This document shows, piece after piece, positions 7,916 through 27,368 of a stretch of DNA of 64,000 bases. The stretch is taken from NCBI RefSeq assembly GCF_003019035.1, contig NZ_CP027447.1, one strand, 5' to 3'. The first letter of the stretch is position 1. Each line of letters begins with the position of its first letter. The stretch is from Escherichia coli (GTDB taxonomy: Bacteria > Pseudomonadota > Gammaproteobacteria > Enterobacterales > Enterobacteriaceae). The position numbers and the translations under genes were made by a program. The notes under the pieces were generated by a model. That model saw only the letters and a program-made list of their open reading frames with translations. It was not told the origin of the DNA and did not search any database.

Positions 7916-8728
7916 TTAGTCCGCCAGAAATAGCGGGCCCATTGGCGGTTTTGGAAGATCATACCGGTCAGGGTAATCCACCGCGACCAGATACAGCCCT
8001 TCCGCTTTTGCCGTTGCTGCCGCCAGCGTTCTGTCCTTTGCCGCTAGCAACTCTGCTATCCAGCTCTCCGGCTGGTTGTGGGCACCGACTTCCATCAGGC
8101 TGCCGACAATATTCCTGACCATATGATGTACAAAGGCATTCGCTTTGATATCTACCACCACATAAGGACCGTGACGCGTGACATTAATATGCATAACGTT
8201 GCGCCACGGGGTCCGGGACTGACACTGCACCGCACGGAACGAGGTGAAATCATTCTCGCCCAGCAAGCATTGCGCAGCCCGATGCATCCGTTCAGCGTCC
8301 AGCGGTTCGTAAAAATGGGTTACCCCTTTACTCAGTACCGCCGGGCGCAGCCGATGATTGTAGATGATGTAGCGATAACGGCGAGCCGTGGCGCTAAATC
8401 GGGCATGAAAATCATCAGGTACAGCTTTAACCCAACGCACGGCGATGTCACCAGGTAAATTCGCATTTACGCCCAACGTCCACGCAGCGTCTTTGCGCTG
8501 CGCGGTCGTTTCGAAATGCACAACCTGCCCGGTGCCGTGTACACCTGCGTCAGTACGCCCGGCGCAGAAGACGGTGATGGGTTCGTTCGCCACCTGGGAG
8601 AGCGCCTTTTCCAGCTTCTCCTGCACACTGCGTACTTCATTCTGCCGTTGCCAGCCGTAATACTTACTGCCGTCGTACTCAATGCCCAGCGCAATTTTAT
8701 AAACTGGCGGTTGTTGCTGGTCGGACAT
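7916..8728 (-). CDS. truA: tRNA pseudouridine(38-40) synthase
   Basis: 270-aa ORF; RTDAGVH catalytic Asp motif. Confidence 0.95.
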
Positions 8729-9741
8729 TAGTACAGATACTCCTGCACCAGTTTCTCGGCGATTTTTACTGCCATCAGCGCGCCGCCAAAGCGAACGTTA
8801 TCGGCCACCGACCAGAACTGAACTTGCTCCGGCATACCGTAGTCATTACGTACGCAGCCAACGGAAAGATGCGGCGTACCAGAAGCATCCCCCACCTGAG
8901 TCGGGAATTCGTTCTCTTCAGAGAGCACAATATCTTCGCCCTGAGCAAACGCATCACGCGCTTCTTCTGCTGCCAGCGGACGCAGTGCTTCAAAGTTGAC
9001 CATCTGGGCATGACCGTAGAATACCGGTGCCTGGACGACGCTTGCCGAAATCATCAGCCCTTCGTCCTGCAGGATTTTGCGTACTTCGTCAACGATACGA
9101 CGTTCTTCACGCACGCTACCTTCGCTATCCGGCAGTAACGGCAGCATGTTGAACGCCAGCTGACGCCCGAAGAAATCTTCTTCATCAATCGGAATGCCGT
9201 TGAGCAATTTCGCACTCTGCCCCGCTAACGCATCGACCGCTTTTTTACCCTGGGCGGAGGCTGAAATCAGGCTGGTAACGCTGATACGTGATAAACCGCC
9301 CTGATCAATTAGCGGTTTCAGTGCCGCCAGCAGTTGGCTGGTCAGACTGTCCGGTACGGCGATGACATTCCGGTTGCGGTAATCGGTCAGTACAAACGGG
9401 TTTACTTCCGGCACCACCAGCGGTACGTCAGGTTCGAGAGCAAACAATCCGCTGCTATCGATCACCAGGCAACCTGAGTTGGTCGCTTCTTCAACCCAGG
9501 CAGCGGTAGCTTCTTTGCCTGCGACAAAAAATGCCAGCTGCGCCTGCGTCCAGTCGAATTCAGCGGCATCCTGCACGGTGATTGTCTTACCACCAAAGCG
9601 CAGTTGTTCGCCTGCGCTTTCGTTACGTGCCAGTGCATAAATTTCCCCAACCGGGAACTGACGTTCAGCCAGCGTTTCAAGCAGGGCTTCGCCCACAGCG
9701 CCAGTTGCGCCCAGGACGGCAATGTTCCAGCCTTCAGACAT
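8728..9741 (-). CDS. usg: USG-1 protein (aspartate-semialdehyde dehydrogenase homologue)
   Basis: 337-aa ORF with N-terminal Rossmann GATGAVG; translationally coupled to truA. Confidence 0.85.
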
Positions 9742-9806
9742 GGTGGTTTACTCCAGAAATAGCAAAGCTCCCTGCCAATATTACAGCAGAGAGCATGAAG
9801 AAGAGA

Positions 9807-10964
9807 TTAACGTGCCGGATGATGGACGGCGTTAAAACCCAGTTTACACAGCAATGATGCCGCACTGGCGTCATCACAAATTACATACAGAGATGACCAT
9901 TCACGGCGCTCAAGATAGTTTTTGCGCAGCTTATCGAACTCACCCGGTATTCCGGCGACTTTACGCAGCGGCGCGTCATCGCGGCGCACATCATACACCA
10001 AATGCACCAGCCTTTTCAGCGTCGGTTGATCGAGCGGGCCATGCAGCGTAATGCGACCAAACTCTGGCGCGGGCAGCAACGTATCCAGCGCAACGTGTTG
10101 TTCATGCCCAATAAACTTGCTATAAGCTTCAAACACTTGCGTAGTACCGCGTGCTTTACCTTCCAGGGTATAGCCTGCGATATGCGGCGTGCCGATATCC
10201 ACTTTTTTCAGCAATTCCACGTTAAGTTCCGGTTCGCCTTCCCAGACATCCAGCACTACGCTTAACTTCTGGCCTTCGTTCAGGCAGGTCAGCAGGGCGG
10301 TATTATCGACGACTGCGCCACGGCAGGCGTTAATCAGAATCGCTCCTGGTTTCAGGCTGCGGATCAGTTTTTCATCCGCCAGATGCAGCGTTTTGTACGG
10401 ACCATCTTTAAAGAGTGGCGTATGGAAAGTCAGAATATCCGCATGCTGAACTAATTCATCCAGCGAGCGGAAATCCCCCTCATCCCCACGGTCGGCGCGG
10501 GGCGGATCGCAAAGTAAGGTTTTGATCCCTAAAGCTTCCAGTCGCGCCTGTAAACGACGACCAACGTTACCAACGCCAACGATCCCCACGGTACGCTCGT
10601 GCAGTGAAAATCCATCGCGTTCGGCAAGCATCAGCAGGGAGGAGAAAACATATTCCACCACCGCAATCGCATTACAGCCAGGTGCCGCGGAAAAACCAAT
10701 TCCCGCCTGCTTTAACCACGCTTCATCGACATGGTCGGTCCCCGCGGTGGCAGTGCCAACAAATTTAATGGGTTTTCCTGCCAGCAAAGATTCATTCACT
10801 TTCGTGACCGAACGCACCATCAGCGCATCCGCGTCTGCCAGTTGAGCGACGGGGATTGGACGCCCGGGAACCGCGGTCACCTCACCCAAACGGCTAAATA
10901 AGTCGCGGGCATAAGGCATATTTTCATCAACAAGGATTTTTAACCCTTTTTCAGTCTCTGACAA
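9807..10964 (-). CDS. pdxB: Erythronate-4-phosphate dehydrogenase
   Basis: D-2-hydroxyacid dehydrogenase fold; matches remembered PdxB ([15 protein letters not shown]...). The codon at the canonical start position is TTA here, so the start is uncertain; the ORF track's TTG at 10964 is used. Confidence 0.9.
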
Positions 10965-11122
10965 TCTAAGGCTCCTTTATTAACAAACGCCCATTTGCAA
11001 ACTGCTGTTTAATCTGAAAAAACATTCATAATCATACAGATAACAACATAACCATTTAGACGGGCAATACTGAAAAATTGTTATTCAGTATCGCCCTTTA
11101 AGCCGTTTCAGGCTATATAAAA

Positions 11123-12142
11123 TTAATCCCCCGTGGACACTGCGTGGACACTCACGCCACCTTTCAGCGGATTAAGGGCCACCGCATCCTGCAGGTAATC
11201 CGGTGCAAAATGTGCATATGCCATTGTTTGCTGAATGGTTGCGTGGCCAAGAATCTTCTGAAGCGCAATAATGTTTCCTCCGTTCATCACAAAATGGCTG
11301 GCGAACGTATGCCGCAGCACATGTGCAGCTTGGCCTTTTGGCAAATCGGGCTTAACTCTTTTCAGCGCCAGGCAGAATTCCCGGTACTTCACCTCAAACA
11401 AGCCGCCTGTTTCTCTGGTTTTGATCGCCTCACAAACTGCCTGCGAAATTGGCACTGTTCTCTTTCGGCCATTTTTGGTTTCAAGAAACGTTACACGGTT
11501 ATGAACTATCTGTTCACCACGAAGCTTACAAGCTTCACTCCAGCGCGCCCCCGTGCTTAAACACAAAAGCGCAACACGCCAGTAATCGCCCTCCAGTGTA
11601 TCGAGCAATAGCGCCACTTCCTTCTGGGACAGGAAAGCCATTTCTCGTGGAGATACATAAAGAATAGAAATTCCCCTTACCGGATGTTCTGCATCCCAGA
11701 GGCCTATTTTCTTCAGTATGGTAAACATTCCGGATAACCGATTCATGTATCTGTTAGCAGATGACGGTTTCAATCCATCAGCTATCTTTTGAGAACGCCA
11801 CGCGATAATTTTTAGCTTATCAAGATCCACAGCCTGCATATCAGCGCCAAGCTCATTGATTATGTTGCGCAGTTGTTTTCGGTCTTCTTCCGCCTTACGC
11901 CTGTGCTGGCCGTGATACATCCACCACAACTCAAGCAAATCATTTAGCGTTCGACGATCACGGTAGCCCTGTATATATTCCCGCTTTTCAGCGTTCGCCA
12001 TGATGTAGCGTTCAGTGGCCACCGCTACCGATTTTTTGTCAAATACCTTACGCACGCGCTTTCCCTTGCGTCCGTTCGGCCTGATGTCCAGCAAATAACG
12101 ACCATCTTCGAGCTTCTTAATCGACATTGCGAAGCCCTCCAA
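11123..12142 (-). CDS. int: Phage integrase (tyrosine recombinase, P2 Int-like)
   Basis: 339 aa; C-terminal catalytic HxxR ... Y motif (HVLRHTFAS ... MAYAHF); adjacent to att core. Confidence 0.9.
   Translation of the reverse strand: MEGFAMSIKKLEDGRYLLDIRPNGRKGKRVRKVFDKKSVAVATERYIMANAEKREYIQGYRDRRTLNDLLELWWMYHGQHRRKAEEDRKQLRNIINELGADMQAVDLDKLKIIAWRSQKIADGLKPSSANRYMNRLSGMFTILKKIGLWDAEHPVRGISILYVSPREMAFLSQKEVALLLDTLEGDYWRVALLCLSTGARWSEACKLRGEQIVHNRVTFLETKNGRKRTVPISQAVCEAIKTRETGGLFEVKYREFCLALKRVKPDLPKGQAAHVLRHTFASHFVMNGGNIIALQKILGHATIQQTMAYAHFAPDYLQDAVALNPLKGGVSVHAVSTGD
11138..11150. repeat. attL core (CACTGCGTGGACA), inside the last codons of int
   Basis: exact 13-bp repeat (17/18 with flank) also at 46825-46837. 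Confidence 0.5.
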
Positions 12143-12223
12143 TGAACCGCTCTACAATTTCTCCAGCCTCTTTCCAGCAATAATCAGACCAGACAAAAAG
12201 CAGGTCTAACCAGTTTTCTGGCC

Positions 12224-12544
12224 TCAGCGGGATAATTTTTGGATTGTTTCGGTTGAAACACGATCTCCCTCCGAATTGCAGGAACCATCAAGAGAGAGAG
12301 CCGGAGAAATTTGCCCAACCTCCGGCATCGTTTCATCTGTTGATAACCAATAAGCATATTTCTTAAATTTAGGGTGTTTAGTAACCTTAAGTAAGGCACC
12401 CTCTGTTACTTGCTTCCCCCTCACCTCATAGTTAGTTACCGTCCCATAAGGCAGCCCAACACAATCCGCAAACTCCTGGCGGGTCATACCTTCTGCTTCA
12501 CGAATCAGGCGAAATTTTTCACCCATGCTTGACAAAGATGCCAT
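12224..12544 (-). CDS. P2 C-type immunity repressor (HTH)
   Basis: HTH MTRQEFADCVGLPYGTVTNYE and C-terminal KYAYWLSTDE...GQISPALS resemble P2 C; start taken at MASLSS (extended ORF runs to 12598). Confidence 0.8.
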   Translation of the reverse strand: MASLSSMGEKFRLIREAEGMTRQEFADCVGLPYGTVTNYEVRGKQVTEGALLKVTKHPKFKKYAYWLSTDETMPEVGQISPALSLDGSCNSEGDRVSTETIQKLSR

Positions 12545-12657
12545 ATCGGGCATATCCTCCATCGCAACATGCCACATCGGGCATAAACATAAAAACACTC
12601 AAATAAGCCGATATAAGCCATTTTGAGCCATTCGAACGAATTAGGGAGATTACCACA

Positions 12658-12945
12658 ATGAGCGAATCAGAGCTTGGGGGCTTCATTCAGGTAGCACCAT
12701 ATCCACTTGAAGCGGTGCCATATCAACTATTCGCCAAGATGATCGGCCGCAAGGAATCCACAGTCAGAACCATGATTGACGCAGCAAAGCTACCGACAAT
12801 TGACTTTGTGAAACCAGGTTCAGTAAAGACGCGTGCATCAGAAAACTGGGTATATCTGCCAGCATTTAACGAAGGCATGCGCAAAGCGTTTTTTGAGCAA
12901 CCGAAAGAACGCCGCGATGCATGGTTGTTGTGGCTGGGGCTTTAG
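12658..12945 (+). CDS. cox: Cox-like excisionase / transcriptional switch protein
   Basis: 95 aa, divergent from repressor; WVYLPAFN ... WLLWLGL resembles P2 Cox. Confidence 0.8.
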   Translation: MSESELGGFIQVAPYPLEAVPYQLFAKMIGRKESTVRTMIDAAKLPTIDFVKPGSVKTRASENWVYLPAFNEGMRKAFFEQPKERRDAWLLWLGL

Positions 12946-14945: not shown

Positions 14946-15241
14946 GCGCCATCAACCACCAGGAATTACGCGAACTGGCAACTGACCTTCAACGAATGGC
15001 AACGCATCAAAAATTACTGGCGTTTCGCGCAACGCTCTCGCCGTCTGCTGTGCTGGCACTGCTGGATGAGCTGGAGCACGCCAGAACCACGGCTCCTGCC
15101 ATTCGCCTGACACTCCATCATGAAATCGCCGATTTCTGCGCGACGTTGGAGGCACCAGGCGAACCGGAAACGCCGGAAGCAATACAGCAAGAGCTGCTGC
15201 AACGCATTGACAAGGTTTTTGATTTTTTTCTGAACCAGTAA
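14942..15241 (+). CDS. Hypothetical protein (early region)
   Basis: 99-aa ORF, start overlaps previous stop. Confidence 0.5.
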   Translation: MSAINHQELRELATDLQRMATHQKLLAFRATLSPSAVLALLDELEHARTTAPAIRLTLHHEIADFCATLEAPGEPETPEAIQQELLQRIDKVFDFFLNQ

Positions 15242-15563
15242 GAAACCAGAACATGCACACACAAAAAAACCGCTTGCCATGCCGCAATCAGTCAGGTTAC
15301 ATTTCCGCTGCACCTCACAAAACGGGTGCCGGGTTTCGCAGCCTGCTGACTACACAAGCGCACAACCGCGCCAGCGGTTTTTTTGTGCGTACTGTATTGC
15401 CACGTTTTTTTCGCGTCAGAATTATGGCGGGGCGTACGGGGCCGACTTCGGTCGGGCCGGGTTCTTGTGTAGCCGGTACTGCGAACCTCGTACGTCTCGC
15501 CACCCACAGTTTCGCAGCTCTGGATGGTGAGTTTTCACAACTTACTACACAAGGGGCCACACC

Positions 15564-15794
15564 ATGGCAAACCGCAAACCACACCGCGCTATCGCGGAGC
15601 GTCGTCACATCCAGACTGAAATCAACCGCAGACTTTCCCGCGCATCACGCGTCGCGCAAATCATGCACATCAATATGCTGCATGAGCGCAGCCACGCACT
15701 ATCAAACATTTATTCCGCCTCTGTTTTCAGCTATCTGGCGGATGATCTGCACGAGCTTCAACAGCTCATCCAGCAGCAAAACAAACTCCATTAA
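15564..15794 (+). CDS. Hypothetical protein (early region)
   Basis: 76-aa basic ORF. Confidence 0.4.
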   Translation: MANRKPHRAIAERRHIQTEINRRLSRASRVAQIMHINMLHERSHALSNIYSASVFSYLADDLHELQQLIQQQNKLH

Positions 15795-15866
15795 TTCCTG
15801 TTCCGGGCCTTTCCTGCACCTTGCGGCGGGAGGCCTTCGCACATCTGTAGTAAAGAGAATTGCAGC

Positions 15867-16256
15867 ATGATTGACGCTCATGACTTCACAAGATGGGTGC
15901 GCACACAGGACACCCGTCTGGCTCCCGTTCTTCAGGGATTATTTGATCTCTACATCCGTGGTCGTGACAACAGAGCACGCACCACAAAACCAGAGAATGC
16001 AGACACCCTTTATTTCACAGTAGACGACTGCTACCGCGTGGACTTCACACCACACGGGCTGGCGTTGCACTGCCTGACACCACACGGCGAATCACTACTG
16101 GCTTATTACGACTCCCCGGCCTCCGTATTTGCGGCAATGCTGGCGCATCGCACTGCTGGCGGGTGTGCCTCGCTGAGTGAATACACCGCTGAATTTAACC
16201 GCCTTTCCACCCTCTTCTCGCAGGAGTGGCAGCGCGTGACGGGATACCAGCCATGA
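15867..16256 (+). CDS. Hypothetical protein (early region)
   Basis: 129-aa ORF, stop overlaps gpA start. Confidence 0.5.
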   Translation: MIDAHDFTRWVRTQDTRLAPVLQGLFDLYIRGRDNRARTTKPENADTLYFTVDDCYRVDFTPHGLALHCLTPHGESLLAYYDSPASVFAAMLAHRTAGGCASLSEYTAEFNRLSTLFSQEWQRVTGYQP

Positions 16257-19093
16257 GTGAGTTTGCATGGAGCTGGAATGAACCACGGCCAGCCATTGAT
16301 CCAGCCAGATTTACGGAGCACAGGCAGGAAACTGAAACCGACCTGCAACGCGCCATCCGTTACTACCTTGAGGCGGACAAAAGGGCACAGAAAGAACAGG
16401 AAGCAAAGGAAGAAGCCTTTTTCGCACAATCCGCCATGGGTAAAAAACTCATGGCATCCCATGAGGAAGCCGGACAGCGTGAAAAGCTGGCACAGAGCAT
16501 CATCAGTAAGCGCCGGGCAACAGAACAAGACCCGGTAGCCCGTGCCTTTGCCACACTGAAGGCGCTTCCCGTTTATCTGCGAGAACCTCTGAGCCGCCAC
16601 CTCTCTTTCCTGCGCAAGAAGCAGGAAGCCGATCGTCAGAAAGGCAAAAAGAGCTGGCAGGCGGAACGCTATGCACGCGGAACCCTGCGCAAAATATTCG
16701 AACGTCTGGACCGCACCGACAGCCGCTGGCTGACACCGGGTTATCGCTCTCTTGCCGGACGCGAACGCCTGGACGATTTGCTTTACCTGCCGCAGCTCAA
16801 CAAACACCAGATACAGACGCTGGCCACCATGACGGCGGCGATGTTCAGCAGCACCTTCGAAAAACTCTGCGATGGCTTTGGCGCGACTGATGGCGAACTG
16901 ACCATGGATGTAACGCTGAAGGCGTATCAGATGCTGGCCCGCATGGCGTTACACCTGCACATCATGCCTCCACATTATGACGCACTGACAACAGATAAAG
17001 ACCGGAGGAACGAACCGGACACGGAGCTGCTGCCGGGCGCAATCCTTCGCCTGACCTGTGCGGAATGGTGGAAACGCAAACTGTGGCTGTTACGTTGCGA
17101 GTGGAGAGAAGAACAACTCCGCGCCGCCTGTCTGGTTTCCAGAAAAACATCACCCTATCTGAGCCAGGACGCGTTAAGCGAGTTTCGCGCACAGCGCGAG
17201 AAAACACGCGATTTCCTGAAAAGTTTCATGCTGGAAAATGAAGACGGGTTCACGATTGATCTCGAGACGGTGTATTACGCGGGAGTAAGTAACCCGGTTC
17301 ACCGTAAGGCAGAAATGATGGCCACCATGAAGGGACTGGAACTTCTGGCCGAAGCCCGTGGCGACAGAGCGGTGTTTCTGACTGTCACCTGCCCGTCAAA
17401 ATACCACGCAACAACGGAGAACGGTCATCCGAACCCCAAATGGAACGGGGCCACCATGCGCGACTCCAGCGATTACCTGGTTAACACGTTTTTTGCGGCG
17501 GTCCGCAAAAAACTGAACCGCGACGGCCTGCGCTGGTATGGCATCCGCACGGTGGAGCCTCACCATGACGGCACCGTGCACTGGCACATGATGGTCTTTG
17601 CTCATCCAGAAGAAATCGACAGCATCGTGGCCATCACCCGCGATATTGCCATTCAGGAAGACCGCCACGAGCTGGGCAATGATATTACTCCGCGCTTTAA
17701 GGTGGAGTATGTCGACGGCTCAAAAGGCACACCAACCAGCTACATCGCCACCTACATCGGAAAGAACCTGGACAGCCGCGCCGTGGATGGCATCGACCCG
17801 AAAACGGGCAAGCCACGCGTTGACCACGAAACCGGAAAATCAATGGCCGAGAGCGTGGAACGCGCCATCGGCTGGGCGCGCCTTCACCGGGTCCGCCAGT
17901 TCCAGTTCTTTGGTATCCCCTCCCGTCAGGTGTGGCGTGAACTGCGCCGCCTTGCCAGCCAGATGGCACGCAACCCGGAAGGCCCGCAACGGCTGAAGGA
18001 TGACGCAATGGACGCGGTACTCGCTGCCGCTGATGCCGGATGTTTTGCCACCTACATTGAGAAACAGGGTGGCGTACTTGTTCCACGCAAAGACTACCTG
18101 ATTCGCACCGCCTACGACCTCGCAGATGAGCTGAACGATTACGGCGAGCAGAGTGTACAGATTTACGGGATCTGGTCGCCGCTCATCGGGGAGTCTTCCC
18201 GCGTGTGCACGCACCCGGATAACTGGAAGCTGGTAAGACGTAAACCGGAAGCGGAAGACAGCGCCCGCGAAAATGGTTTTGACCTTCAGGGCGGCCCTGC
18301 CGCCCCTTGGACTCGTGGCAATAACTGTCCCCGTGTACAGGAAACGGACAACAACGGGACAGAACAGCCGGAAGAACGGCCAGCACCGTGGCCGCAGCTC
18401 CCTGACGGCGTTGAAGTGAACGAATGGATGCGCTCACTGAAACGGCACGAACGCCGGGCGCTGATGCGTTCGCTTCGTGACAAACAGGCAAAAAACAGCA
18501 GTGATGAAATGCAGAGCTGGACACAGAGCCGCAAACAGCAGCGGCCTTTGCCTGATAACCACGAATTACTCGCTAAAGAATGGCGGGAGTCTGCTGAATC
18601 TCTCGGCCTGCATATCGGTGAACAGCAGATGCAGCACCTGTTACGGGGCGGCAGTCTGTACGTTGACGGCAGCATCATTGCACCGCAGGGATTTGAAATT
18701 GTACGCAAACCGGATACCCGACCGGACAGCCGGATCACGCAGCTCTGGCAGCGCCTGAGCCGTAACCACGGCGTAAGCAGCACGGAGATCCGCCATAACC
18801 CGGTCGCCAGCTATCTGGAACAGCTGGCGGCATCAGACCCCGAAGCCGCCGCACGCCTGGCATCCACACTTCAGCAAGACCAGAACACCATGAAAACACC
18901 CGTTACCGTGCTTTCTGACATGCTGCGCGCCATCCGCGACGCAGAGCACGCACAGAGAATCAGTGAAACCACTGAACGCGCCCGCCGCAAAGCAGACCTG
19001 CTGCGGGGTGGCCTGACCATTGGAAACAAAAAACAGACAGAAACGGGATTCACAAATCCCGTAAATGAGCAAAAAACGCGCCGCGATATATGA
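16253..19093 (+). CDS. Replication initiation endonuclease (P2 gpA-like rolling-circle initiator)
   Basis: 946 aa from MSEFAWSW; conserved HHDGTVHWHMMVF region of the phage replication endonuclease family; longer than P2 gpA (C-terminal extension). Confidence 0.85.
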   Translation: MSEFAWSWNEPRPAIDPARFTEHRQETETDLQRAIRYYLEADKRAQKEQEAKEEAFFAQSAMGKKLMASHEEAGQREKLAQSIISKRRATEQDPVARAFATLKALPVYLREPLSRHLSFLRKKQEADRQKGKKSWQAERYARGTLRKIFERLDRTDSRWLTPGYRSLAGRERLDDLLYLPQLNKHQIQTLATMTAAMFSSTFEKLCDGFGATDGELTMDVTLKAYQMLARMALHLHIMPPHYDALTTDKDRRNEPDTELLPGAILRLTCAEWWKRKLWLLRCEWREEQLRAACLVSRKTSPYLSQDALSEFRAQREKTRDFLKSFMLENEDGFTIDLETVYYAGVSNPVHRKAEMMATMKGLELLAEARGDRAVFLTVTCPSKYHATTENGHPNPKWNGATMRDSSDYLVNTFFAAVRKKLNRDGLRWYGIRTVEPHHDGTVHWHMMVFAHPEEIDSIVAITRDIAIQEDRHELGNDITPRFKVEYVDGSKGTPTSYIATYIGKNLDSRAVDGIDPKTGKPRVDHETGKSMAESVERAIGWARLHRVRQFQFFGIPSRQVWRELRRLASQMARNPEGPQRLKDDAMDAVLAAADAGCFATYIEKQGGVLVPRKDYLIRTAYDLADELNDYGEQSVQIYGIWSPLIGESSRVCTHPDNWKLVRRKPEAEDSARENGFDLQGGPAAPWTRGNNCPRVQETDNNGTEQPEERPAPWPQLPDGVEVNEWMRSLKRHERRALMRSLRDKQAKNSSDEMQSWTQSRKQQRPLPDNHELLAKEWRESAESLGLHIGEQQMQHLLRGGSLYVDGSIIAPQGFEIVRKPDTRPDSRITQLWQRLSRNHGVSSTEIRHNPVASYLEQLAASDPEAAARLASTLQQDQNTMKTPVTVLSDMLRAIRDAEHAQRISETTERARRKADLLRGGLTIGNKKQTETGFTNPVNEQKTRRDI

Positions 19094-19169: not shown

Positions 19170-20129
19170 ATGAAAATTTGTATCGATGACGGCTCCACCA
19201 ACATCAAGCTGGCATGGACTGAGAACGGCGAACGCCGCAACGCCATCAGCCCGAACAGCTTCAAGTCGGAATGGTCTGCGCCGTTCGGTGGCACGCAGCC
19301 CGCGAACTACATGCTTGATGGCGTGCGCTATGGTTTTGATCCGGTCAGCGATCGCTTTGTCCAGACGACCGACACGCAATACCAGTACAGCGATGTGAAT
19401 GTCATTGCCATTCATCACGCGCTGGTCAAATCAGGCATCACACCACAGGAAGTGGATGTGGTTGTCACCCTGCCACTGAGCGAATATTTCGACACAAACG
19501 CACAGCCGGACATGGCCAACATCAACCGCAAAAAAGCAAACGTCATGCGCCCGGTGGCGTACCAGAACGGAAAAGCATTCACTATCCGTAACGTACGGGT
19601 TATGCCTGAATCCATTCCGGCTGGTTTTAAAGCACTGGCTGACATGAGTCCGTTTGAATCCCTGCTGATTGTGGATTTAGGCGGAACCACGCTGGATGTG
19701 GCAAAGGTTCAGGGACAACTGGCAGGTATCAGCCAGGTGTTTTGCGATCCACACGTAGGCGTTTCCCTGATGGCCGATGCCGTACTGTCGGTGATGGCCA
19801 CTAACGGTATGCGCACCAGTCACCACATCGCCAATACCATTATCGAACATCGCCATGATGAAGCCTGGCTGCGCCAGCACATCCACAATGACGCGCATTA
19901 CGCCAGCCTGATGGCGGTTATTCGTGAAAAGGAAGAAACACTGAAACAACGCGTGATCCGCGCGCTGGCGGTTTTTTCGGGTTACGGGCGGGTGATGGTT
20001 GTCGGTGGCGGGGCGGAGATTGTGGCACCCGCTATCCGCGAAGCCTGCGGAGTTAATGCGACTTTCATCGCGGACGGGGTGCCACAATTTGCTCTGGTTA
20101 ATGGGCTGTACGCAATGAACAAGGAGTAA
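19170..20129 (+). CDS. ParM/StbA-family actin-like segregation ATPase
   Basis: 319 aa; IDDGSTNIKL, ISPNSFK, YSDVNV.A.HHAL, VMPESIPAG, LIVDLGGTTLD, VMVVGGGAE closely parallel plasmid R1 ParM. Confidence 0.85.
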   Translation: MKICIDDGSTNIKLAWTENGERRNAISPNSFKSEWSAPFGGTQPANYMLDGVRYGFDPVSDRFVQTTDTQYQYSDVNVIAIHHALVKSGITPQEVDVVVTLPLSEYFDTNAQPDMANINRKKANVMRPVAYQNGKAFTIRNVRVMPESIPAGFKALADMSPFESLLIVDLGGTTLDVAKVQGQLAGISQVFCDPHVGVSLMADAVLSVMATNGMRTSHHIANTIIEHRHDEAWLRQHIHNDAHYASLMAVIREKEETLKQRVIRALAVFSGYGRVMVVGGGAEIVAPAIREACGVNATFIADGVPQFALVNGLYAMNKE

Positions 20130-20133
20130 ACCA

Positions 20134-20445
20134 ATGACGACACCAACCAGAAGAATAAGTTTCTATCTGAAGCCAGCTGCCGTCAAGAACGAAGGAGAAG
20201 CATGCGCCTGGCTGGACAGTCTTACACCAGAAGCCCGCAAAAGCGGCCAACGCGTGGCTTTTCTGGCCGGGCTGGCACTTCTGAAGACGAATCCGGCAGA
20301 GGCTTACCGACTGGCCGCATGGGCTGATGATGAGATGTTACCTGTGACACAAATCAGCTCAAAAAAGTTTGAAGCACAGTCTGCACCAGTGGCTAAGATA
20401 ACCAGCCAGATGGCTGGGAATATCCGGGCGTTATTTCCTGAGTAA
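20134..20445 (+). CDS. ParR/StbB-like small DNA-binding adaptor
   Basis: 103 aa directly downstream of the ParM-like gene; ISFYLKP and LDSLTPEARKSGQRVAFLAGLAL parallel R1 ParR N-terminus. Confidence 0.7.
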   Translation: MTTPTRRISFYLKPAAVKNEGEACAWLDSLTPEARKSGQRVAFLAGLALLKTNPAEAYRLAAWADDEMLPVTQISSKKFEAQSAPVAKITSQMAGNIRALFPE

Positions 20446-20573
20446 AAGCATCTGCGCGAAAAATGCTCACGTTTATAGAGACAGTATCATTCCATTTGGC
20501 ACACTTACTTCAATAATCGATCTGTTAAACAAATAGATTGTCTATTATCTATCGATTAAAACGATCAATTATC

Positions 20574-20601
20574 TTGACAGTAATGTGCCTTTTTGTAAGA
20601 T
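20574..20601 (+). promoter_or_regulatory. Sigma70-like promoter (TTGACA-16-TAAGAT) with GATC overlapping the -10
   Basis: near-consensus -35/-10; three GATC sites at 20519, 20563 and 20599. Confidence 0.45.
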
Positions 20602-20707
20602 CGTTCGCATTGTGAGCGACAAGATAATTGCGCGGCATTGTCCATGCAAAACGCCCCAATAGCAGCAACTATTGGGGCGTAAAACTCGGTCGGACTCACT
20701 TAACCTG

Positions 20708-20793
20708 ATATGCGTGCCTTCCGAAGTAAATCAAAATGTGCGTCGTATATTTTATTGCTTACACGCACCTCTGTAAAGGCACGCATATTTTTC
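20708..20793 (+). terminator. Long hairpin (13-bp perfect stem, nested 6-bp inner stem) followed by T-run; attenuator or terminator
   Basis: ATATGCGTGCCTT (20708-20720) pairs with AAGGCACGCATAT (20776-20788), then TTTTT; lies between the promoter and the GTG start at 20810. Confidence 0.4.
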
Positions 20794-20809
20794 CTATGAG
20801 GTAAATAAA

Positions 20810-21079
20810 GTGCGGGCTAAAACAGGTATTTGCAAGAACCCTCATCGTTATAATCCAACATTTCTGTCTCTCCCTGAATATCAAGGACAAGAAGGTCGGC
20901 ACAAATGCGCTGCCTGTGCTTTTGAGCTAGGCATAAAAGATGCGCTTGAAGGACGCGCTATGGCTCAGAATGATTTAGTTTTAGCTAACATTCCGTTTAG
21001 CCAGGCTGGAACTGTAAGGCACAGAGATGCCTATGAAGCATATGTTCGTGGTTGGCGATTAATACACAGCAACAATTGA
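20810..21079 (+). CDS. Hypothetical 89-aa Cys/His-containing protein (prophage cargo)
   Basis: GTG start with GAGG 8 nt upstream; CKNPHRY...HKCAACAF suggests metal binding; followed by a clean intrinsic terminator. Confidence 0.5.
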   Translation: MRAKTGICKNPHRYNPTFLSLPEYQGQEGRHKCAACAFELGIKDALEGRAMAQNDLVLANIPFSQAGTVRHRDAYEAYVRGWRLIHSNN

Positions 21080-21087
21080 TACTTTTG

Positions 21088-21112
21088 AAGCGCCGATAAG
21101 GCGCTTTTTTTG
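21088..21112 (+). terminator. Rho-independent terminator
   Basis: AAGCGCC-loop-GGCGCTT stem followed by TTTTTTT directly after stop at 21079. Confidence 0.6.
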
Positions 21113-21565
21113 TTTGCACGATAGTGCACAAGTTTGCACAATTTTTTTGAACGACTTTTTGTACTTCCGGCCCGCGTGGTGGCTGGATCCGTCAAGGATC
21201 CGTACGTGCACAAAAATACGCGTTTTTTCTGCGCGCAGGTGACGGGGGAACAGCCCGCGTTTCAGGGGGTAAATAGCATTCCCTTAACGATGTCGCAGCG
21301 ACATGACAGAATGGCCGTATTTCTCACGCTGAGCGTGAAAAATACGTGAGGGATTCTGCTTTGATGGGGTGAAAGGTAAGGCCGTCAAAATCGCACTGAG
21401 GCGGCGAGAACATGCAGTCAGCGCAGTGGGATTGCGTAAGAGTCTGACCGTCGATGATGGCAATAAGCAGGAAAGCGTCGTGAAATTATCTGACTGATAC
21501 AGGAGCTGGAGAGTCGGGGCATAAATTTTTTATGCCCCGGCGAAGCAGCAGACAAGCGAAGCGCG

Positions 21566-22612
21566 TCAGGATGTGGGCTGGGTATCTAACAGTGCGTAAG
21601 GGTTAAAGCGGATCACCTCTTCGCCAAGCCAGTCATTGATGTGCTTCATGGCCTCCATGACGGGCATCAGCTCGTTAATTGCGTAAACCCGCGCGGCCTT
21701 CTCCACATCACCAAACGCACTTTTTTCGCCCGGCATCGCCCCCATCAGTTGCGGCGGAACGCGGTGCGCAGCCAGCACATCATCACGGGATGCCGCCTTA
21801 ACATTCATGAACTCATCTTTTGCGGTGATCTGCTGGAACGGCAAAATTTGCACCCCCTCTTTGCCCCCGTTGGGCGCATGAATGAGCACGTTTTTAAACG
21901 CACCACCACCACGTGCCCCCTGTAGCGTTTCTTTCAGGGAGTCCATGCTTTCGCGGTTTACCTGCGCTGCACCGATGTAGATGATGCACCCGGCGTGGGA
22001 TCCGTTGTCGTAGTACAGTTTTCTGAACATGTCCGCTGAATGAGAAAGGCTGGCCGAGAGTAATGCGCCAAGATATTCCGGCATGCCGTAGATTTCCTGG
22101 TTAATATCCGGATTCATCAGGTGGCACACTTTGCCAGGACGAAACTGGAACGCGTCCTTGCCATCCTGCACATACCACCATGATTCAAGATCGCTTCCGC
22201 GTCGCATGTATTTCGCCAGGGCGTGCCGTAATTTAAGCGGTTCGCCGAGCATATTGCTTCGAAGCTCAAGGAATGCGTTACCGAACACAAACCAGTCCAG
22301 CGCCAGCGCCGAGAAATCCTGCCGGGAAAGCAGCGGGTGCGGGATGTAGCAACCGAGTAATACATTGCGCTTAAAGTAAAGCGCAGACTGATGCCAGGAC
22401 GTTTGCCGGGCAGCTCTTGCCAGACCGTACCAGTCCACCGGGGTTTCATACCACCGCCCGTTATCAGCACAGTACATATTGTCCAGCAGGTCATGCCCGG
22501 TCAGGCGATAAGGACCATCAAATGTGAATGCACTGAGCGATGATTCTTTCCTGAGCGCATCAGCGAGATCAATGCGTGAACTCATGCGCACTTTTTTATT
22601 TTTTCTGCTCAT
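21566..22612 (-). CDS. Portal protein (P2 gpQ-like)
   Basis: 348 aa; position and size as P2 Q, co-oriented and coupled with terminase gene. Confidence 0.9.
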   Translation of the reverse strand: MSRKNKKVRMSSRIDLADALRKESSLSAFTFDGPYRLTGHDLLDNMYCADNGRWYETPVDWYGLARAARQTSWHQSALYFKRNVLLGCYIPHPLLSRQDFSALALDWFVFGNAFLELRSNMLGEPLKLRHALAKYMRRGSDLESWWYVQDGKDAFQFRPGKVCHLMNPDINQEIYGMPEYLGALLSASLSHSADMFRKLYYDNGSHAGCIIYIGAAQVNRESMDSLKETLQGARGGGAFKNVLIHAPNGGKEGVQILPFQQITAKDEFMNVKAASRDDVLAAHRVPPQLMGAMPGEKSAFGDVEKAARVYAINELMPVMEAMKHINDWLGEEVIRFNPYALLDTQPTS

Positions 22613-24363
22613 CAGAACTCCATAACCGTGAAACGCTCGTTTTCTCCTTCGCCGCCAATCGGTTCGTTAATGACAGCAAGCATGGTTGCCCACGCAAGGT
22701 CGCCGTGGCTGATCCCCCTCGCTCGGTCCGTTTCGTAAGTGATAAAGCCGCCCGGTGTTTTCACCTTACGCACGGCGTTAAAGGCCGCGACCAGCTCGCG
22801 TTCGGCGCGATCGTATTCCCACCGCCCGGCACGCATTATTTGCAGCATTTTCAGTACCAGCGACCGTTTTGATGACAGCGTGAAGGTGTACGGAATAGCA
22901 GCAGGGAAAAACCGCTTCACTATCTGATAAACAGCCTCCCCGTTCCCGCCCGTCACATCAATGCCGATGTGTTCCACGTTGTAGCGATACGTGAACTCTT
23001 CAATGACTCTGGCCTGTTCTTCAAACTCCAGCCCCTGAACGCGTCGCGTCTCCACCGTTCGAAAACGGCCACCAGGAACAGCCGGAGGAACCACCACGGA
23101 CACAGCGCCGCTGTCGCCGTTGCCACTACTGCCGTTTGCGTCATACCCAATCCATACCGGACGATTCCCCATCGGGCGGGGAGCAAAAGGTTTCCAGTCT
23201 TTCCAGTCGTCGTATCCGTCAACACCACAGCCAATCAGGATATTCAGGTTAAATGCCGATTCCCCTTCGCGGACAAACTCACACATATAGAGATTGAGGA
23301 ACTCGTCTTCGGTGTTTTCATCACGAATTTCATCAATATCGGTGTGTTTCCAGCCGTGATTAACCACATCTTCCAGCGTGACAATTTGCCGCCACGTCCG
23401 GTCAGGGCAGATAAGCCCGTTATGCAGCGTTTTCCAGTCCACAGAAAAACGCTGGCGTTTATGCGTGGCCTTTTTCTCGTTCCAGCGGTCGCCGTTCCAG
23501 TAGGCGTATGCCTCGTGCGTTTCGGTGGATGGCGTGGAGAAGTAGGTGCGCCGCAGTCCGCTGAGGGTTGCCATAGCGCCAGCCACCTTGCGCAGTTCAG
23601 CAAAGCGACTGACCCAGAAAAATTCATCAAAATAAAAATTGCCCGTATAGGACTGTGCCGACGCAGCAGAAGTGCCGAGAAAATGCAGCTCTGCGCCGTT
23701 GGAGAGGATGATTTTATCACCCCCTTTCAGCTCCACATCAACTTCAGCCGCGGCCTTCTGAATAATGCTTTTAAACTGGAACGCCTGACGACGCGACGCA
23801 GACAAAAAAATCTGGTTACGCTGGTAAGGTTGCGCCACATCGTCACGCAGCGCCATCAGCAGCGCTTCCTGTGCAAAATACCAGGTCGCCCCAATCTGTC
23901 GGGATTTCAGGATCATCCTGTTACGTATCCCGGCTTCCCTGCAAAGGGTCAGGGAGTCAAACCAGCCCCGCTGATGCCACTCCAGCCTGCTGATGATTTT
24001 TTCCCGCAGTGCGGCAATCTGTTCCGGCGTGAAATGATTTTTGAGTTTTTTCGCCCGGCCTTTCTTTCCTGCGGCCATCACATCCGGCTGGCCATCATGC
24101 AGCTTTTTAAGCTGCCGGGTCAGCAGGTCTATTTCCTTAAAGTCACCGCCTGTTTTATTCTGTTTTTCAGTAAGCTGGATGAGGCGCGCATCGATGGACT
24201 GCGTGACACGCTGCACGGGTGGCGTTTCATCCCACTGGTCACGTTTTTTCCACGCATAAATCGTGTTCGGGTTTATTCCCATCAGACGTGATATTTCTGC
24301 GGGCGGATAACCCTGCCAGTAAAGTTGCCGCGCACGCTGGCGCACAAAAGCGTCCTGAATCAT
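22612..24363 (-). CDS. Terminase large (ATPase) subunit (P2 gpP-like)
   Basis: 583 aa; P-Q leftward operon divergent from capsid operon as in P2. Confidence 0.9.
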   Translation of the reverse strand: MIQDAFVRQRARQLYWQGYPPAEISRLMGINPNTIYAWKKRDQWDETPPVQRVTQSIDARLIQLTEKQNKTGGDFKEIDLLTRQLKKLHDGQPDVMAAGKKGRAKKLKNHFTPEQIAALREKIISRLEWHQRGWFDSLTLCREAGIRNRMILKSRQIGATWYFAQEALLMALRDDVAQPYQRNQIFLSASRRQAFQFKSIIQKAAAEVDVELKGGDKIILSNGAELHFLGTSAASAQSYTGNFYFDEFFWVSRFAELRKVAGAMATLSGLRRTYFSTPSTETHEAYAYWNGDRWNEKKATHKRQRFSVDWKTLHNGLICPDRTWRQIVTLEDVVNHGWKHTDIDEIRDENTEDEFLNLYMCEFVREGESAFNLNILIGCGVDGYDDWKDWKPFAPRPMGNRPVWIGYDANGSSGNGDSGAVSVVVPPAVPGGRFRTVETRRVQGLEFEEQARVIEEFTYRYNVEHIGIDVTGGNGEAVYQIVKRFFPAAIPYTFTLSSKRSLVLKMLQIMRAGRWEYDRAERELVAAFNAVRKVKTPGGFITYETDRARGISHGDLAWATMLAVINEPIGGEGENERFTVMEF

Positions 24364-24517
24364 TGCTCCCCCTGAGTAATTACAGGAAGATTACCCGCGC
24401 GCGAAACTGTTCTCCTTAACCCCCTGTTCTGGCCGTTTTCTTACAACAAAAGCCCTTTGTATCAGCCTGTTACGCTTTGCCATCATGACTGAAGAACCAG
24501 TCAGAGGGGCAAAAACT

Positions 24518-25354
24518 ATGGCTAATGAAAAAAAGACATCCCGCAAAAAGTTTCGCGTGGCTGTCTCCGGATCAACTGTTGATGGCCGTGAAATCAGTCC
24601 GGTGCATCTGCGTGAAGCCGCCGAGAACTTCAACCCGGATGTTTACGCTGCCCGCGTGAACGTTGAGCACTATCTCTCGCCATGCCCGTCAAGCGAATTT
24701 TCCGCAATGGGCGATGTCACCGCACTGAGTACGGAAGACATTACGGAAGGTCCGCTGGCCGGACGTACTGCGCTGTATGCAGAAATCGAACCGACCGAGC
24801 GCATGAAGCAGCTTGTCGCGGACGGCAAGAAAATCTATTCCAGTATCGAACTGCACCCGCAGTTCTCCGTTAACGGGCGCGCCTATCTGGTCGGGCTGGC
24901 GATGACCGACACCCCGGCAAGCCTGGGCACTGAGCGCCTGAAATTCACGGCACAGCAACGTCAGGCGGTAATGACGTTCAACAGTATCCAGGGTGAAGCG
25001 CCGCTTATTTCCGAAGCCATCGAGTCTGAAATCATCGAAATGGCAGAACAACGCCAGGAAGAAGGCACCCAGTGGTTTAACCGCGTAATGGGGATTATTG
25101 GCCGTGGCCGCAAAGCGGATGACGCCAGTTTTTCCCGTATTCAGGAAGCGGTGGAAGGCGTCGCAACGTCACAGGCCGACATTATCGACCGTTTTAATGT
25201 GCTGGAAACCCGCCATCAGCAGGACAGCCAGAAAATTACGTCACTGACCACAGAGCTGGCAGCACTGAAGGAAAAACTGCGCACGCAGGACGGCGATCCG
25301 CAGAACCGGTTCACCGCAACAGGTGCAGCCTCCGACCAGCTGGCTGACTTCTGA
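24518..25354 (+). CDS. Capsid scaffolding protein (P2 gpO-like)
   Basis: start at MANEKK with upstream GAGGGG; first gene of rightward capsid operon. Confidence 0.85.
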   Translation: MANEKKTSRKKFRVAVSGSTVDGREISPVHLREAAENFNPDVYAARVNVEHYLSPCPSSEFSAMGDVTALSTEDITEGPLAGRTALYAEIEPTERMKQLVADGKKIYSSIELHPQFSVNGRAYLVGLAMTDTPASLGTERLKFTAQQRQAVMTFNSIQGEAPLISEAIESEIIEMAEQRQEEGTQWFNRVMGIIGRGRKADDASFSRIQEAVEGVATSQADIIDRFNVLETRHQQDSQKITSLTTELAALKEKLRTQDGDPQNRFTATGAASDQLADF

Positions 25355-25377
25355 TAAGACAAAGGAGCAAATTTTTT

Positions 25378-26430: not shown

Positions 26431-26475
26431 TCAACTCACGGCGGGCATCATGCCCGCCAGTAACGGAGAGAACAA

Positions 26476-27276: not shown

Positions 27277-27368
27277 CGACTGACCCCGTCAGCGGGCGGC
27301 GTGCGCGGTGTTCCGGTTTGACTCCGTGACCGTTTACACCGCGCACCCACCGCCCGATTTTTTCAGGA

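Follow-up and report, generated by a model that had tools for sequence, protein, structure and literature searches.

What is encoded by positions 15242-15563 of the stretch of Escherichia coli DNA analysed here (64 kb, subsequently designated the window), which are located just 5' of an anti-repressor-like (epsilon-like) gene and a replication gene? The initial annotation had described a non-coding, structured region without any plausible ORF and had suggested a terminator/antiterminator, an sRNA or a regulatory site. We conclude, with a probability of roughly 75%, that the region represents a P4-type RNA immunity cassette within a P2-like, P88-type prophage (genus Xuanwuvirus). As judged from its predicted parts, the cassette is a known kind of phage regulator, consisting of an antisense RNA (C4/CI type), decoy sites, target sites and a terminator. 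All three suggested functions coexist as parts of this one known system and do not have to be treated as alternatives. The following RNA features and sites were assigned:

15274-15303, + strand: promoter-like site TTGCCA, 18-nt spacer, TACATT (consensus scan, 9/12 matches)
15310-15384, + strand: IsrK/seqA-type RNA with two hairpins (Rfam RF01394, 64.1 bits, gathering score 50)
15335-15341, + strand: site a1 (TTCGCAG) inside the IsrK/seqA-type RNA, complementary to a'
15350-15358, + strand: site b1 (CTACACAAG) inside the IsrK/seqA-type RNA, complementary to b'
15364-15379 (stem) and 15378-15384 (T run), + strand: intrinsic terminator (terminator scan), at which the IsrK/seqA-type RNA ends
15420-15507, + strand: C4/CI-type antisense RNA (Rfam RF01695, 83.2 bits, gathering score 45, E = 7e-15)
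15425-15441 with 15486-15502, + strand: closing stem of C4, 17 bp
15442-15455, + strand: UUCG hairpin of C4
15456-15477, + strand: second hairpin of C4, whose loop holds b'
15464-15472, + strand: site b' (CTTGTGTAG) in the loop of the second hairpin, complementary to b1 and b2
15479-15485, + strand: site a' (CTGCGAA), single-stranded, complementary to a1 and a2
15511-15517, + strand: site a2 (TTCGCAG), downstream target of a' (complementarity and covariation)
15545-15553, + strand: site b2 (CTACACAAG), downstream target of b', overlapping the Shine-Dalgarno sequence AAGGGG at 15551-15556

Both Rfam families, isrK and C4, score above their gathering thresholds within the window, the C4 match spanning the full model (positions 1-87), and the same two families match P88, prophage Sp13 of strain Sakai, P4 itself and four lambdoid phages. 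The P2 genome and positions 20000-30624 of phage 186 (its immunity and early region) yielded neither a C4 nor an isrK match, and therefore the cassette is not common to P2 and the scanned part of 186, i.e. to both type phages. Folding of residues 15420-15507 yielded -47.7 kcal/mol (z = -4.5 compared to shuffles), and the MFE fold of C4 agrees with the family consensus, i.e. a long closing stem around two hairpins. A 13-bp long-range stem that had been noticed previously is indeed present, with GGCGGGGCGTACG at 15426-15438 pairing with CGTACGTCTCGCC at 15489-15501, and belongs to the 17-bp closing stem. The GC-rich hairpin is correct as a string (GGGCCGACTTCGGTCGGGCC, 15439-15458) but contains a G.G mismatch in the form in which it had been written; the part supported by covariation is a 5-bp stem, CCGAC/GUCGG, with a UUCG loop.

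The three reported copies of CTACACAAG were retrieved at 15350 and 15545 on the + strand and, inverted, at 15464-15472. Exactly three copies exist in the 64-kb window, in which 0.24 are expected by chance, and three copies were reached in 0 of 100 shuffles. A second complementary triplet, namely TTCGCAG at 15335 and 15511 and CTGCGAA at 15479, had been overlooked, and so had the nature of the repeats, which are antisense RNA recognition elements, the downstream copy covering a ribosome-binding site. Taken together, the two triplets yield the order a1, b1, b', a', a2, b2 along the + strand, in which b' and a' are exact complements of both the upstream and the downstream pair, over 9 nt and 7 nt, respectively.

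The terminator-like hairpin with its T7 tail, previously placed at about 15358-15385, was confirmed as AACCGC-GCCA-GCGGTT followed by seven T residues at 15364-15384. This canonical element raises the question whether the region, lacking any trans-acting RNA, serves only to stop or attenuate transcription on its way from the early accessory genes into the replication genes. Terminators that are overcome in lytic growth have been annotated for phage 186 in its equivalent of this early region. We consider such a mere stop signal very improbable. A terminator alone explains neither the conserved 88-nt fold downstream nor the Rfam scores and the three-way covariation of the two recognition sites (see below), whereas the terminator stem itself is invariant across variants and hence neutral in this respect.

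The promoter-like site at 15274-15303 is well conserved. Transcription from this site would start near 15310, which is the position where the Rfam isrK model begins, just 3' of the site. By position it is the analogue of PLE in P4, where TTGCCT ... TATAGT is found at the same relative location. A separate promoter for C4 (TTGCCA-17-AATTAT, 15397-15425) was considered and rejected: transcription would begin inside the closing stem, the -35 element reads TCGCCA in many alleles, and nothing similar is present there in P4. Location inside the closing stem and an unconserved -35 element rather fit processing of C4 from an upstream start. As expected of a member of the C4 family, the RNA would be excised from a longer transcript, with RNase P acting at the 5' end, and would be stable.

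To assess the recognition sites, we compared 59 unique variants, derived from 84 loci of P88-like prophages. The differences between them cluster in the six a and b sites, which occur as 9 b and 5 a alleles and change together. In 20 variants, all three stems of C4 were 100% paired; both partners had changed in 2 pairs each of the closing stem and of hairpin 1. The a1:a' and b1:b' duplexes were also 100% paired in 20 variants, and both sides had changed in 4/7 and 6/9 pairs, respectively. On the downstream side, a':a2 was 100% paired (both-side changes in 4/7 pairs) and b':b2 was 95.6% paired (5/9 pairs). Covariation scores reached 0.279 and 0.662 as compared to 0.093 and 0.131 in shuffles, with 0 of 500 shuffles attaining the observed values, and controls with slid registers were only about 40% paired. 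The cognate duplex between C4 and its target was the best one in every row (mean of -24 kcal/mol versus -10.7 kcal/mol for non-cognate combinations). Finally, all viral contigs carrying the a'/b' allele of the window (39/39) possess the matching targets wherever sequence is present. The covariation of the sites is strong evidence for RNA-RNA recognition, and from it we infer that the sites pair. Putative roles in repression of the downstream operon in trans and in immunity specificity are supported indirectly, as the 9 b and 5 a alleles match within the element.

The label "non-coding" and the claim that no plausible ORF exists proved wrong. An ORF of 205 codons starting with ATG crosses the entire region and continues towards the replication genes:

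15253-15870, + strand: eta-like ORF, 205 codons (ORF listing; RefSeq "ash family protein"; Pfam PF10554)
15564-15794, + strand: epsilon-like "derepression protein" gene, 76 codons (Pfam PF25738, 32.5 bits, cut-off 27)
15867-16256, + strand: 129-codon gene (PHROG 3237, function unknown)
16253-19093, + strand: replication initiator gene A, P2 gpA family (Pfam PF05840, E = 4e-131)

The ATG of the eta-like ORF is located 11 nt past the stop codon of the upstream gene and 5' of the internal promoter (-35 at 15274), which consequently lies within the ORF, and its stop codon overlaps the ATG of the next gene (ATGA). The ORF reads C4 in the register used by P4 eta and by the long ORF of mEp460; the AUG at the 5' edge of C4 (15424 in the window) is in frame in all three. 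The match to PF10554 comprises residues 16-109, corresponding to nt 15298-15579, and is marginal (26.5 bits, cut-off 26). BLASTP comparison of the 205-codon ORF with P4 eta returned nothing significant, and therefore the relation is visible only through PF10554 and the shared register. NCBIfam contained no match for the eta-like or the epsilon-like ORF.

In some genomes RefSeq annotates the ORF as "ash family protein" or "antirepressor protein", and the region could accordingly be regarded as a plain protein-coding gene for a 205-aa product, whose RNA-like features are incidental. Such a gene would be in line with the PF10554 score just above the cut-off, with a frame that is open in most of the 59 unique variants, and with a start ATG that is retained downstream of three different sequences (116 of 121 loci). 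Nevertheless, we give this explanation hardly any credence, because variation tracks RNA complementarity and not codon position. Variable columns per codon position were uninformative as a result of mosaic flanks and were replaced by synonymous/non-synonymous counts and resampling. The frame shows 17 synonymous versus 48 non-synonymous changes, a ratio at the random level, and the amino-acid sequence is not conserved and differs widely between alleles. Moreover, an intrinsic terminator lies inside the ORF, and six natural variants (L028, L074, L081, L067, L077 and L083) have a broken frame but intact RNA features. In the window as well as in P4 and mEp460, the PF10554 match coincides exactly with the nucleotides of isrK and C4. 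It also counts against a protein gene that Ghisotti, Deho and colleagues reportedly showed the immunity factor of P4 to be an RNA.

The eta-like frame is open in most variants all the same. No interruption occurs across two epsilon alleles (synonymous resampling, P = 0.05 and P = 0.01), and 0 stops were found among 67 observed substitutions as compared to about 2.7 expected. As the frame is broken in 6 of 59 variants, translation through the cassette cannot be indispensable in every prophage, unless these copies are defective.

Among the downstream genes, the epsilon-like one is the first to have its ribosome-binding site covered by a target of C4: AAGGGG stands 7 nt before its ATG at 15564, which is out of frame with the 205-codon ORF and falls on its third codon position. 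Its product shares 29% identity with P4 epsilon over 66 aa (BLASTP, E = 4e-9), and P4 epsilon itself scores 170 bits with PF25738. The gene is intact in 58 of 59 variants, and its frame is enriched in synonymous changes (27:38 versus 17:48 and 12:50 in the other two frames). Hence, the gene behind b2 is an epsilon homologue and neither an in-frame, kil-type terminal part nor a Kil/Rha-like N-terminus. P4 epsilon targets the C repressor of P2. The resident prophage encodes a P2 C-type repressor (37% identity, E = 3e-23), which is thus the right kind of target for the epsilon-like protein and may be bound by it. Further downstream, ATGA overlaps join the 129-codon gene to the eta-like ORF on its 5' side and to gene A on its 3' side. 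The latter overlap results from the start of gene A as given in the RefSeq annotation of the RM8988-C1 locus, which is 100% identical over the 601-nt query. Gene A is the probable final output of the cassette.

Element by element, the cassette is homologous to the immunity region of P4 (PLE, seqA, terminator, CI RNA, seqC) and to the C4 systems of P1/P7. The P4 region matches the same two Rfam families in the same order, with a promoter just 5' of the first RNA and an intrinsic terminator after b1, as in the window. The sites a1, b1, b', a', a2 and b2 also share order and spacing, b2 being placed on the Shine-Dalgarno sequence of the first downstream start, which is that of kil. In P4, too, a long ORF begins 5' of the promoter, its register across C4 being that of the ORF in the window, and the P4 "cI" ORF matches PF10554 as the latter does. 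According to a summary of the P4 system, CI is located within eta, the promoter is internal to eta, and translation of eta prevents termination (PMC10111431). In both elements an epsilon-family gene and then a replication gene follow downstream. However, the host element in the window is a complete P2-like phage of the helper type with a C/Cox switch and not a satellite. Behind b2, the window has the epsilon homologue, out of frame with the eta-like ORF, whereas P4 has kil in frame and epsilon thereafter. The replication gene encodes gpA, a rolling-circle nickase, in contrast to the alpha primase-helicase of P4; the spacer between terminator and C4 amounts to about 35 nt as compared to about 105 nt in P4, and the a and b alleles differ. 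There is no synteny with P4 beyond epsilon: the 129-codon gene resembles neither orf151 nor orf106 of P4, and P4 orf88 has no similarity to the 99-codon gene located upstream.

The immI regions of P1 and P7 (c4, icd, ant) employ an RNA of the same family, RF01695. Citron and Schuster in 1990 and Hartmann et al. in 1995 are said to have found a1/b1 upstream and a2/b2 downstream of c4, with b2 covering the ribosome-binding site of the first ORF and the RNA controlling an anti-repressor; differences in the a and b sites reportedly determine heteroimmunity of P1 and P7. The covariation of alleles observed here plays the role of these differences. The effector is Ant in P1/P7 and an epsilon-type protein in the window, whose cassette, unlike that of P1/P7, is part of the early replication operon in a P2-like phage.

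Starting from the complementarity and covariation observed here, we infer all functional steps of the cassette mechanism, which would probably proceed as follows. In the lysogen, the internal promoter at 15274-15303 would fire and most transcripts would stop at the terminator at 15364-15384, giving rise to an IsrK/seqA-like RNA of roughly 75 nt that bears a1 and b1 as decoy sites. Transcripts reading through would be processed to a C4/CI RNA of roughly 80-90 nt; as the terminator is located between b1 and C4, read-through is required for C4 production. The exposed b' and a' sites of C4 would then base-pair with b2 and a2, whether these are carried by read-through or by incoming transcripts, and hide the ribosome-binding site of the epsilon-like anti-repressor gene. 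The untranslated transcript would terminate early, leaving the 129-codon gene and gene A silent. During lytic growth, transcripts from an early promoter further upstream would include the eta-like start codon at 15253, and ribosomes on the eta-like ORF would traverse the terminator, C4 and the target sites, thereby overriding the RNA control. These ribosomes would be passed via the two ATGA overlaps to the 129-codon gene and then to gene A. The many a and b alleles would set mutual immunity between phages. Of note, the gene behind b2 is in another frame than the eta-like ORF, unlike kil in P4, and therefore the P4 model is not transferable unchanged.

A different sign of regulation is suggested by the Gifsy-1 system of Salmonella (IsrK, STnc1160, orf45, AnrP), in which the upstream RNA IsrK acts as activator in trans, involving Hfq binding and increased downstream translation (PMC4825925). 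The sign and the main regulator in the window may consequently differ from the P1/P4 picture. Activation of this type could even dominate: the IsrK-like RNA carrying a1 and b1 would bind a' and b' in the folded C4 in trans and free the AUG at 15424; an ORF of 148 codons would then be translated, switching on the 129-codon gene and gene A through the ATGA overlaps, and the upstream RNA would play the part of an inducer and not that of a decoy. Much of the module is compatible with this scheme. It has matches to isrK and C4, which are the two Rfam families fitting Gifsy-1, and also in Gifsy-1 the isrK match comes with a terminator and read-through and is followed downstream by an RNA of the C4 family (PMC4825925); we take C4 to be the STnc1160 of that paper. 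The AUG at the C4 edge is in frame with a long ORF ending in ATGA on the next gene, similar to orf45/anrP, where the ORF starting at the 5'-edge AUG of C4 likewise ends with AUGA on the next gene (PMC4825925). As reported for orf45, the nucleotide sequence is conserved but the protein sequence is not (PMC4825925), and the frame is open across two divergent epsilon alleles. However, the ORF from the C4 edge comprises 148 codons in the window versus 45 codons in Gifsy-1 and overlaps the epsilon-like gene, and the coupled gene encodes the 129-codon protein, followed by gpA, instead of a Rha/Bro-type anti-repressor. The published Gifsy-1 model makes no use of a2/b2 sites. It therefore leaves unexplained why a2 and b2 covary with C4 as tightly as a1 and b1 and why b2 is positioned on the Shine-Dalgarno sequence of the epsilon-like gene. 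In addition, the ORF from 15424 is shortened to 16-64 codons in variants L028, L074, L081 and L067. We regard dominance of Gifsy-1-type activation as possible, with somewhat less than an even chance. The two models are not exclusive, and activation of the Gifsy-1 type may constitute the induction arm of the same switch.

In the lambdoid phages mEp460, ST64B, Stx2a_1447 and 1720a-02 an IsrK-C4 module is present 5' of Rha-type anti-repressors and exhibits about 70% nucleotide identity with the window over isrK and C4. The same Rfam matches and the same a/b layout were found in these four phages, with b2 on the Shine-Dalgarno sequence of the downstream start, and ORFs called in the databases cross the RNA module in the same register as in the window. 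Unlike in the window, the gene downstream codes for a protein with a Rha domain and shares its frame with the through-ORF. The lambdoid cassette is located between a cII-like gene and the replication genes of the early-right operon, and its alleles differ from those of the window.

For lambdoid prophages with IsrK-C4 systems, Barquist et al. have raised the idea of defence or cross-talk (PMC3632133). Transferred to the P4-type cassette studied here, this idea would mean that the cassette mainly acts against P4-like satellites or other phages with the same RNA system and not in control of the own lysis-lysogeny decision. A cassette and an epsilon homologue that are common to a helper-type phage and its satellite type would suit such a role, and the high diversity of alleles would fit an arms race. 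However, 0 of 5 a alleles and 0 of 9 b alleles equal those of P4 (a, GTGAGAA; b, TTCACAGG) or those of the four examined lambdoid phages, and the targets always match C4 of the same element, as expected for self-regulation. Defence as the main function thus appears unlikely.

Returning to immunity control of the P4 type, we tentatively propose that P88-like phages, which are of the helper kind, might run the RNA immunity logic of P4 as a second layer over their C/Cox switch, although the odds for this wider view are below even. C4 would gate an epsilon-type anti-repressor and, via the coupled ORFs, gpA, and the eta-like frame would be kept open solely for override by ribosomes. The a'/b' combinations of C4, at least 11 in number and built from freely recombining sites, would then define RNA-based heteroimmunity groups. 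Since P88-like phages also have partition genes of the ParM type, the choice between silent integration and an episomal or replicative state may be made by this second layer. We found no account of such a cassette in P2-like or P88-like phages in our literature searches. SOS control of the cassette was considered and rejected: no site CTGT-N8-ACAG (one mismatch allowed) is present in or near 15200-15600, and the total of 17 such sites in the window compares to a chance level of 19. P2 itself is not known to be SOS-inducible. An RNA-controlled anti-repressor of the epsilon type would provide a candidate route for induction in phages with a P2-type C repressor.

The region was detected in 1267 of 5426 complete E. 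coli genomes (about 23%), including prophage Sp13 of O157 Sakai, whose copy is found in NC_002695.2 near 2,598,550-2,599,100. As a P4/P1-type cassette, it would connect P2-like prophages of a very common family with a regulatory logic that is already well studied, would predict immunity groups that are defined by RNA, and would make both the cassette and epsilon common property of a helper-type phage and its satellite type. Annotation of the RNA is absent from every record examined, in which the region is left blank or labelled "ash family", "antirepressor" or "transcriptional regulator". PF10554 and several PHROG families named "transcriptional regulator" represent, to a large extent, the conceptual translation of an RNA module.

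The region 15242-15563 is flanked by two genes, one of 99 codons with its stop at 15241 and one of 76 codons with its ATG at 15564. Scanning of the window with the Rfam covariance models, a check proposed in the initial annotation, detected two RNA families above the curated thresholds and nothing else, i.e. the C4 antisense RNA and the short isrK RNA. RNA folding, likewise proposed, yielded -47.7 kcal/mol for 15420-15507 (z = -4.5). The structures recognized beforehand in the sequence are indeed present: the terminator-like hairpin followed by seven T (15364-15384) forms the 3' terminus of the isrK-type RNA, the GC-rich hairpin GGGCCGACTTCGGTCGGGCC at 15439 is the first inner hairpin of C4, and the 13-bp long-range stem, in which GGCGGGGCGTACG at 15426 pairs with CGTACGTCTCGCC at 15489, belongs to the stem of 17 bp that closes C4. 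The repeat CTACACAAG occurs at 15350 and 15545 and, as reverse complement, at 15464; these are its only three sites in 64 kb (chance expectation 0.24), a number reached in 0/100 shuffles.

Features of the cassette (window coordinates)
15274-15303: promoter-like site TTGCCA-18-TACATT; predicted start coincides with base 1 of the isrK model
15310-15384: isrK (RF01394), 64.1 bits (Rfam threshold 50)
15335-15341: a1, complementary to a'
15350-15358: b1, complementary to b'
15420-15507: C4 antisense RNA (RF01695), 83.2 bits (Rfam threshold 45)
15464-15472: b', CTTGTGTAG, loop of the second C4 hairpin; complements b1 and b2
15479-15485: a', CTGCGAA, single-stranded, 3' of the second C4 hairpin; complements a1 and a2
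15511-15517: a2, complementary to a'
15545-15553: b2, complementary to b'

As the sites are ordered a1, b1, b', a', a2, b2, antiparallel pairing of C4 is possible with either flank. The downstream b2 site overlaps the Shine-Dalgarno sequence AAGGGG, which is located 7 nt 5' of the ATG at 15564. A 9-bp hairpin between a2 and b2 (15525-15547) reaches with its 3' strand into the first bases of b2 and may control access to this site; in the type-2 allele the equivalent sequence differs, and a shorter stem GGUGA/UCACC is still possible.

The P4 genome was scanned directly with the isrK and C4 models. The isrK match (8692-8615) corresponds to seqA plus a terminator, with a -35/-10 pair immediately 5' of its start, and the C4 match (8507-8420) corresponds to the CI RNA; a1, b1, a2 and b2 follow each other as in the window. 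P4 b2, TTCACAGGA, overlaps the Shine-Dalgarno sequence of ATG 8365, where kil begins, a frame of 65 codons in register with the eta ORF (199 codons). The P4 CDS formerly annotated as 'cI protein' matches Pfam PF10554 (Ash) and P4 epsilon matches PF25738. In the window, PF10554 is matched by a 205-codon ORF, its residues 16-109 representing exactly the isrK and C4 nucleotides, and PF25738 by the 76-codon ORF, which shares 29% identity with P4 epsilon (E = 4e-9). Taken together, the shared RNA families, layout and PF10554/PF25738 matches identify the cassette as equivalent to the immunity region of P4. Unlike in P4, the epsilon-like gene is placed directly behind b2, and it does not share the reading frame of the eta-like ORF. 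Four lambdoid phages carry the same module upstream of a Rha-type anti-repressor.

Covariation was assessed using 80 viral contigs retrieved with the 76-codon protein plus four annotated loci, among which the 700-nt region exists in 59 distinct versions. Variation among these versions clusters at the a and b sites, six in all, which vary together; nine b and five a alleles are combined as mosaics. In a 20-sequence alignment, pairing reached 100% for a1:a', b1:b' and a':a2 and 95.6% for b':b2, as compared to only ~40% in slid controls. Both sides had changed in 4/7 (a1:a'), 6/9 (b1:b'), 4/7 (a':a2) and 5/9 (b':b2) pairs. Covariation scores were well above those of shuffles, 0/500 of which equalled them, and in each row the cognate combination had the most favourable summed duplex energy (mean -24 vs -10.7 kcal/mol). 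The exact a'/b' of the window occurs in 39 viral contigs, with matching targets in 39/39 wherever the sequence is present. This pattern is the hallmark of RNAs that recognize each other specifically. A terminator and nothing more would account for the hairpin with its T-tract, but leaves C4 and the covariation unexplained. An anti-satellite role of the cassette, an idea taken from PMC3632133, is not supported so far, as comparison with P4 and the four lambdoid phages has revealed no shared allele to date.

In locus L074 a 17-nt insertion (~2900-2920, corresponding to window 15458-15462) puts a type-2 b' CTTTGCTCT beside the type-1 b', so that this C4 may recognize two b alleles; the insertion also disrupts the eta-like frame. 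In mEp460 (L086) and Stx2a_1447 (L088), the lambdoid a element has the target GTGGAAA and the a' sequence TTTCCAC, which is exactly the P88-like type-3 allele of L051 and L084 (target TTTCCAC, a' GTGGAAA) with its strands exchanged.

The initial annotation had seen no plausible ORF in the region, which is wrong: the 205-codon ORF (15253-15870, + strand) spans all of it. A purely protein-coding interpretation is contradicted by the substitution pattern. In the part shared with the epsilon-like gene, synonymous to non-synonymous changes amount to 27:38 in the epsilon frame (enriched), 17:48 in the 205-codon frame and 12:50 in the third frame. The lack of synonymous enrichment, the wide divergence of the 205-codon product among alleles and six natural variants, in which the ORF is disrupted and the RNA features are intact, argue that its protein sequence is unimportant. 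Four observations suggest that the open frame itself matters. Its ATG is found 171 or 174 nt 5' of the C4 AUG in 116/121 loci despite three different upstream sequences, and the frame stays open across two epsilon alleles 78% identical (synonymous resampling, P = 0.05 and 0.01). An ATGA stop/start overlap at 15867-15870 links it to a 129-codon gene, and another at 16253-16256 links the latter to replication gene A. Finally, C4 is read in one register by the 205-codon ORF, P4 eta and the lambdoid through-ORFs. The epsilon-like gene stands outside the ATGA chain, ending 72 nt 5' of the 129-codon gene. In P4, CI lies within eta, which contains a constitutive internal promoter, and eta translation prevents termination on transcripts initiated upstream (PMC10111431, summary). 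In Gifsy-1, activation of the coupled downstream gene requires translation of the ORF starting at the equivalent C4 AUG, and this ORF is conserved in nucleotide rather than protein sequence (PMC4825925). The data suggest that the 205-codon ORF is an eta-like frame, for which being translated is more important than the protein made. The epsilon-like gene has a 54-nt in-frame deletion in three loci (L095, L099, L104) and a divergent central allele (78% nucleotide identity) in L110 and L127; in L117 a deletion has created a fusion of its N-terminal portion with the C-terminal portion of the eta-like frame that overlaps it.

As judged from P4, P1 and Gifsy-1, the short a1/b1 RNA would arise from the internal promoter, and read-through plus processing would yield C4. 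Pairing of C4 with a2/b2 would block translation of the epsilon-like gene and end transcription early, ahead of gene A. Transcripts from the early promoter would evade C4 control because the eta-like ORF is proposed to be translated through the cassette, delivering ribosomes to gene A. A decoy or activator role of the short RNA, through titration of C4, is possible, and the a and b alleles would set immunity groups. Activation by the short RNA as in Gifsy-1 may represent the arm by which this switch is induced; it leaves a2/b2 unexplained. Systems of this kind are well known (P1/P7 c4, P4 CI/seqA, Gifsy-1 IsrK, all in Rfam); our literature search found no account of such a cassette in P2-like or P88-like phages.

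The window is E. coli chromosome, in which a P2-like prophage adjoins pdxB. This prophage, integrated beside usg and pdxB (stretch 8728-12598), is a member of the P88 group (genus Xuanwuvirus) and has a repressor of the P2 C type.

Prophage genes (window coordinates)
11123-12142, minus strand: integrase
~12224-12598, minus strand: P2 C-type repressor
12658-12945: cox
19170-20129 and 20134-20445: plasmid partition genes of the ParM/StbA type, immediately 3' of gene A

P88 is among the phages proposed as possible phage-plasmids (PMC7969092), and the ParM-type genes together with a P4-type cassette possibly gating gene A hint at an episomal state. The C4 and isrK models gave no match in the P2 genome or in the scanned immunity and early region of 186.

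The region is present in 1267/5426 complete E. coli genomes. None of the records examined, including RefSeq/GenBank entries L001, L002, L003, L004 and L085, carries an ncRNA feature here; in these five, one and the same locus is left blank or annotated as a minus-strand hypothetical, an 'ash family protein', an 'antirepressor protein' overlapping a 'derepression protein', or a 'transcriptional regulator'. PF10554 ('Ash protein family') aligns exactly to the isrK and C4 module as conceptually translated, and so do several PHROG families labelled 'transcriptional regulator', as seen at window 15253-15870, P4 (L090) 8168-8767 (minus strand) and mEp460 (L086) 1141-2292. The 383-aa 'Rha/antirepressor' annotated in the lambdoid phages combines a DUF4222 ORF with the RNA module and the genuine Rha-type protein; the latter begins 3' of b2.
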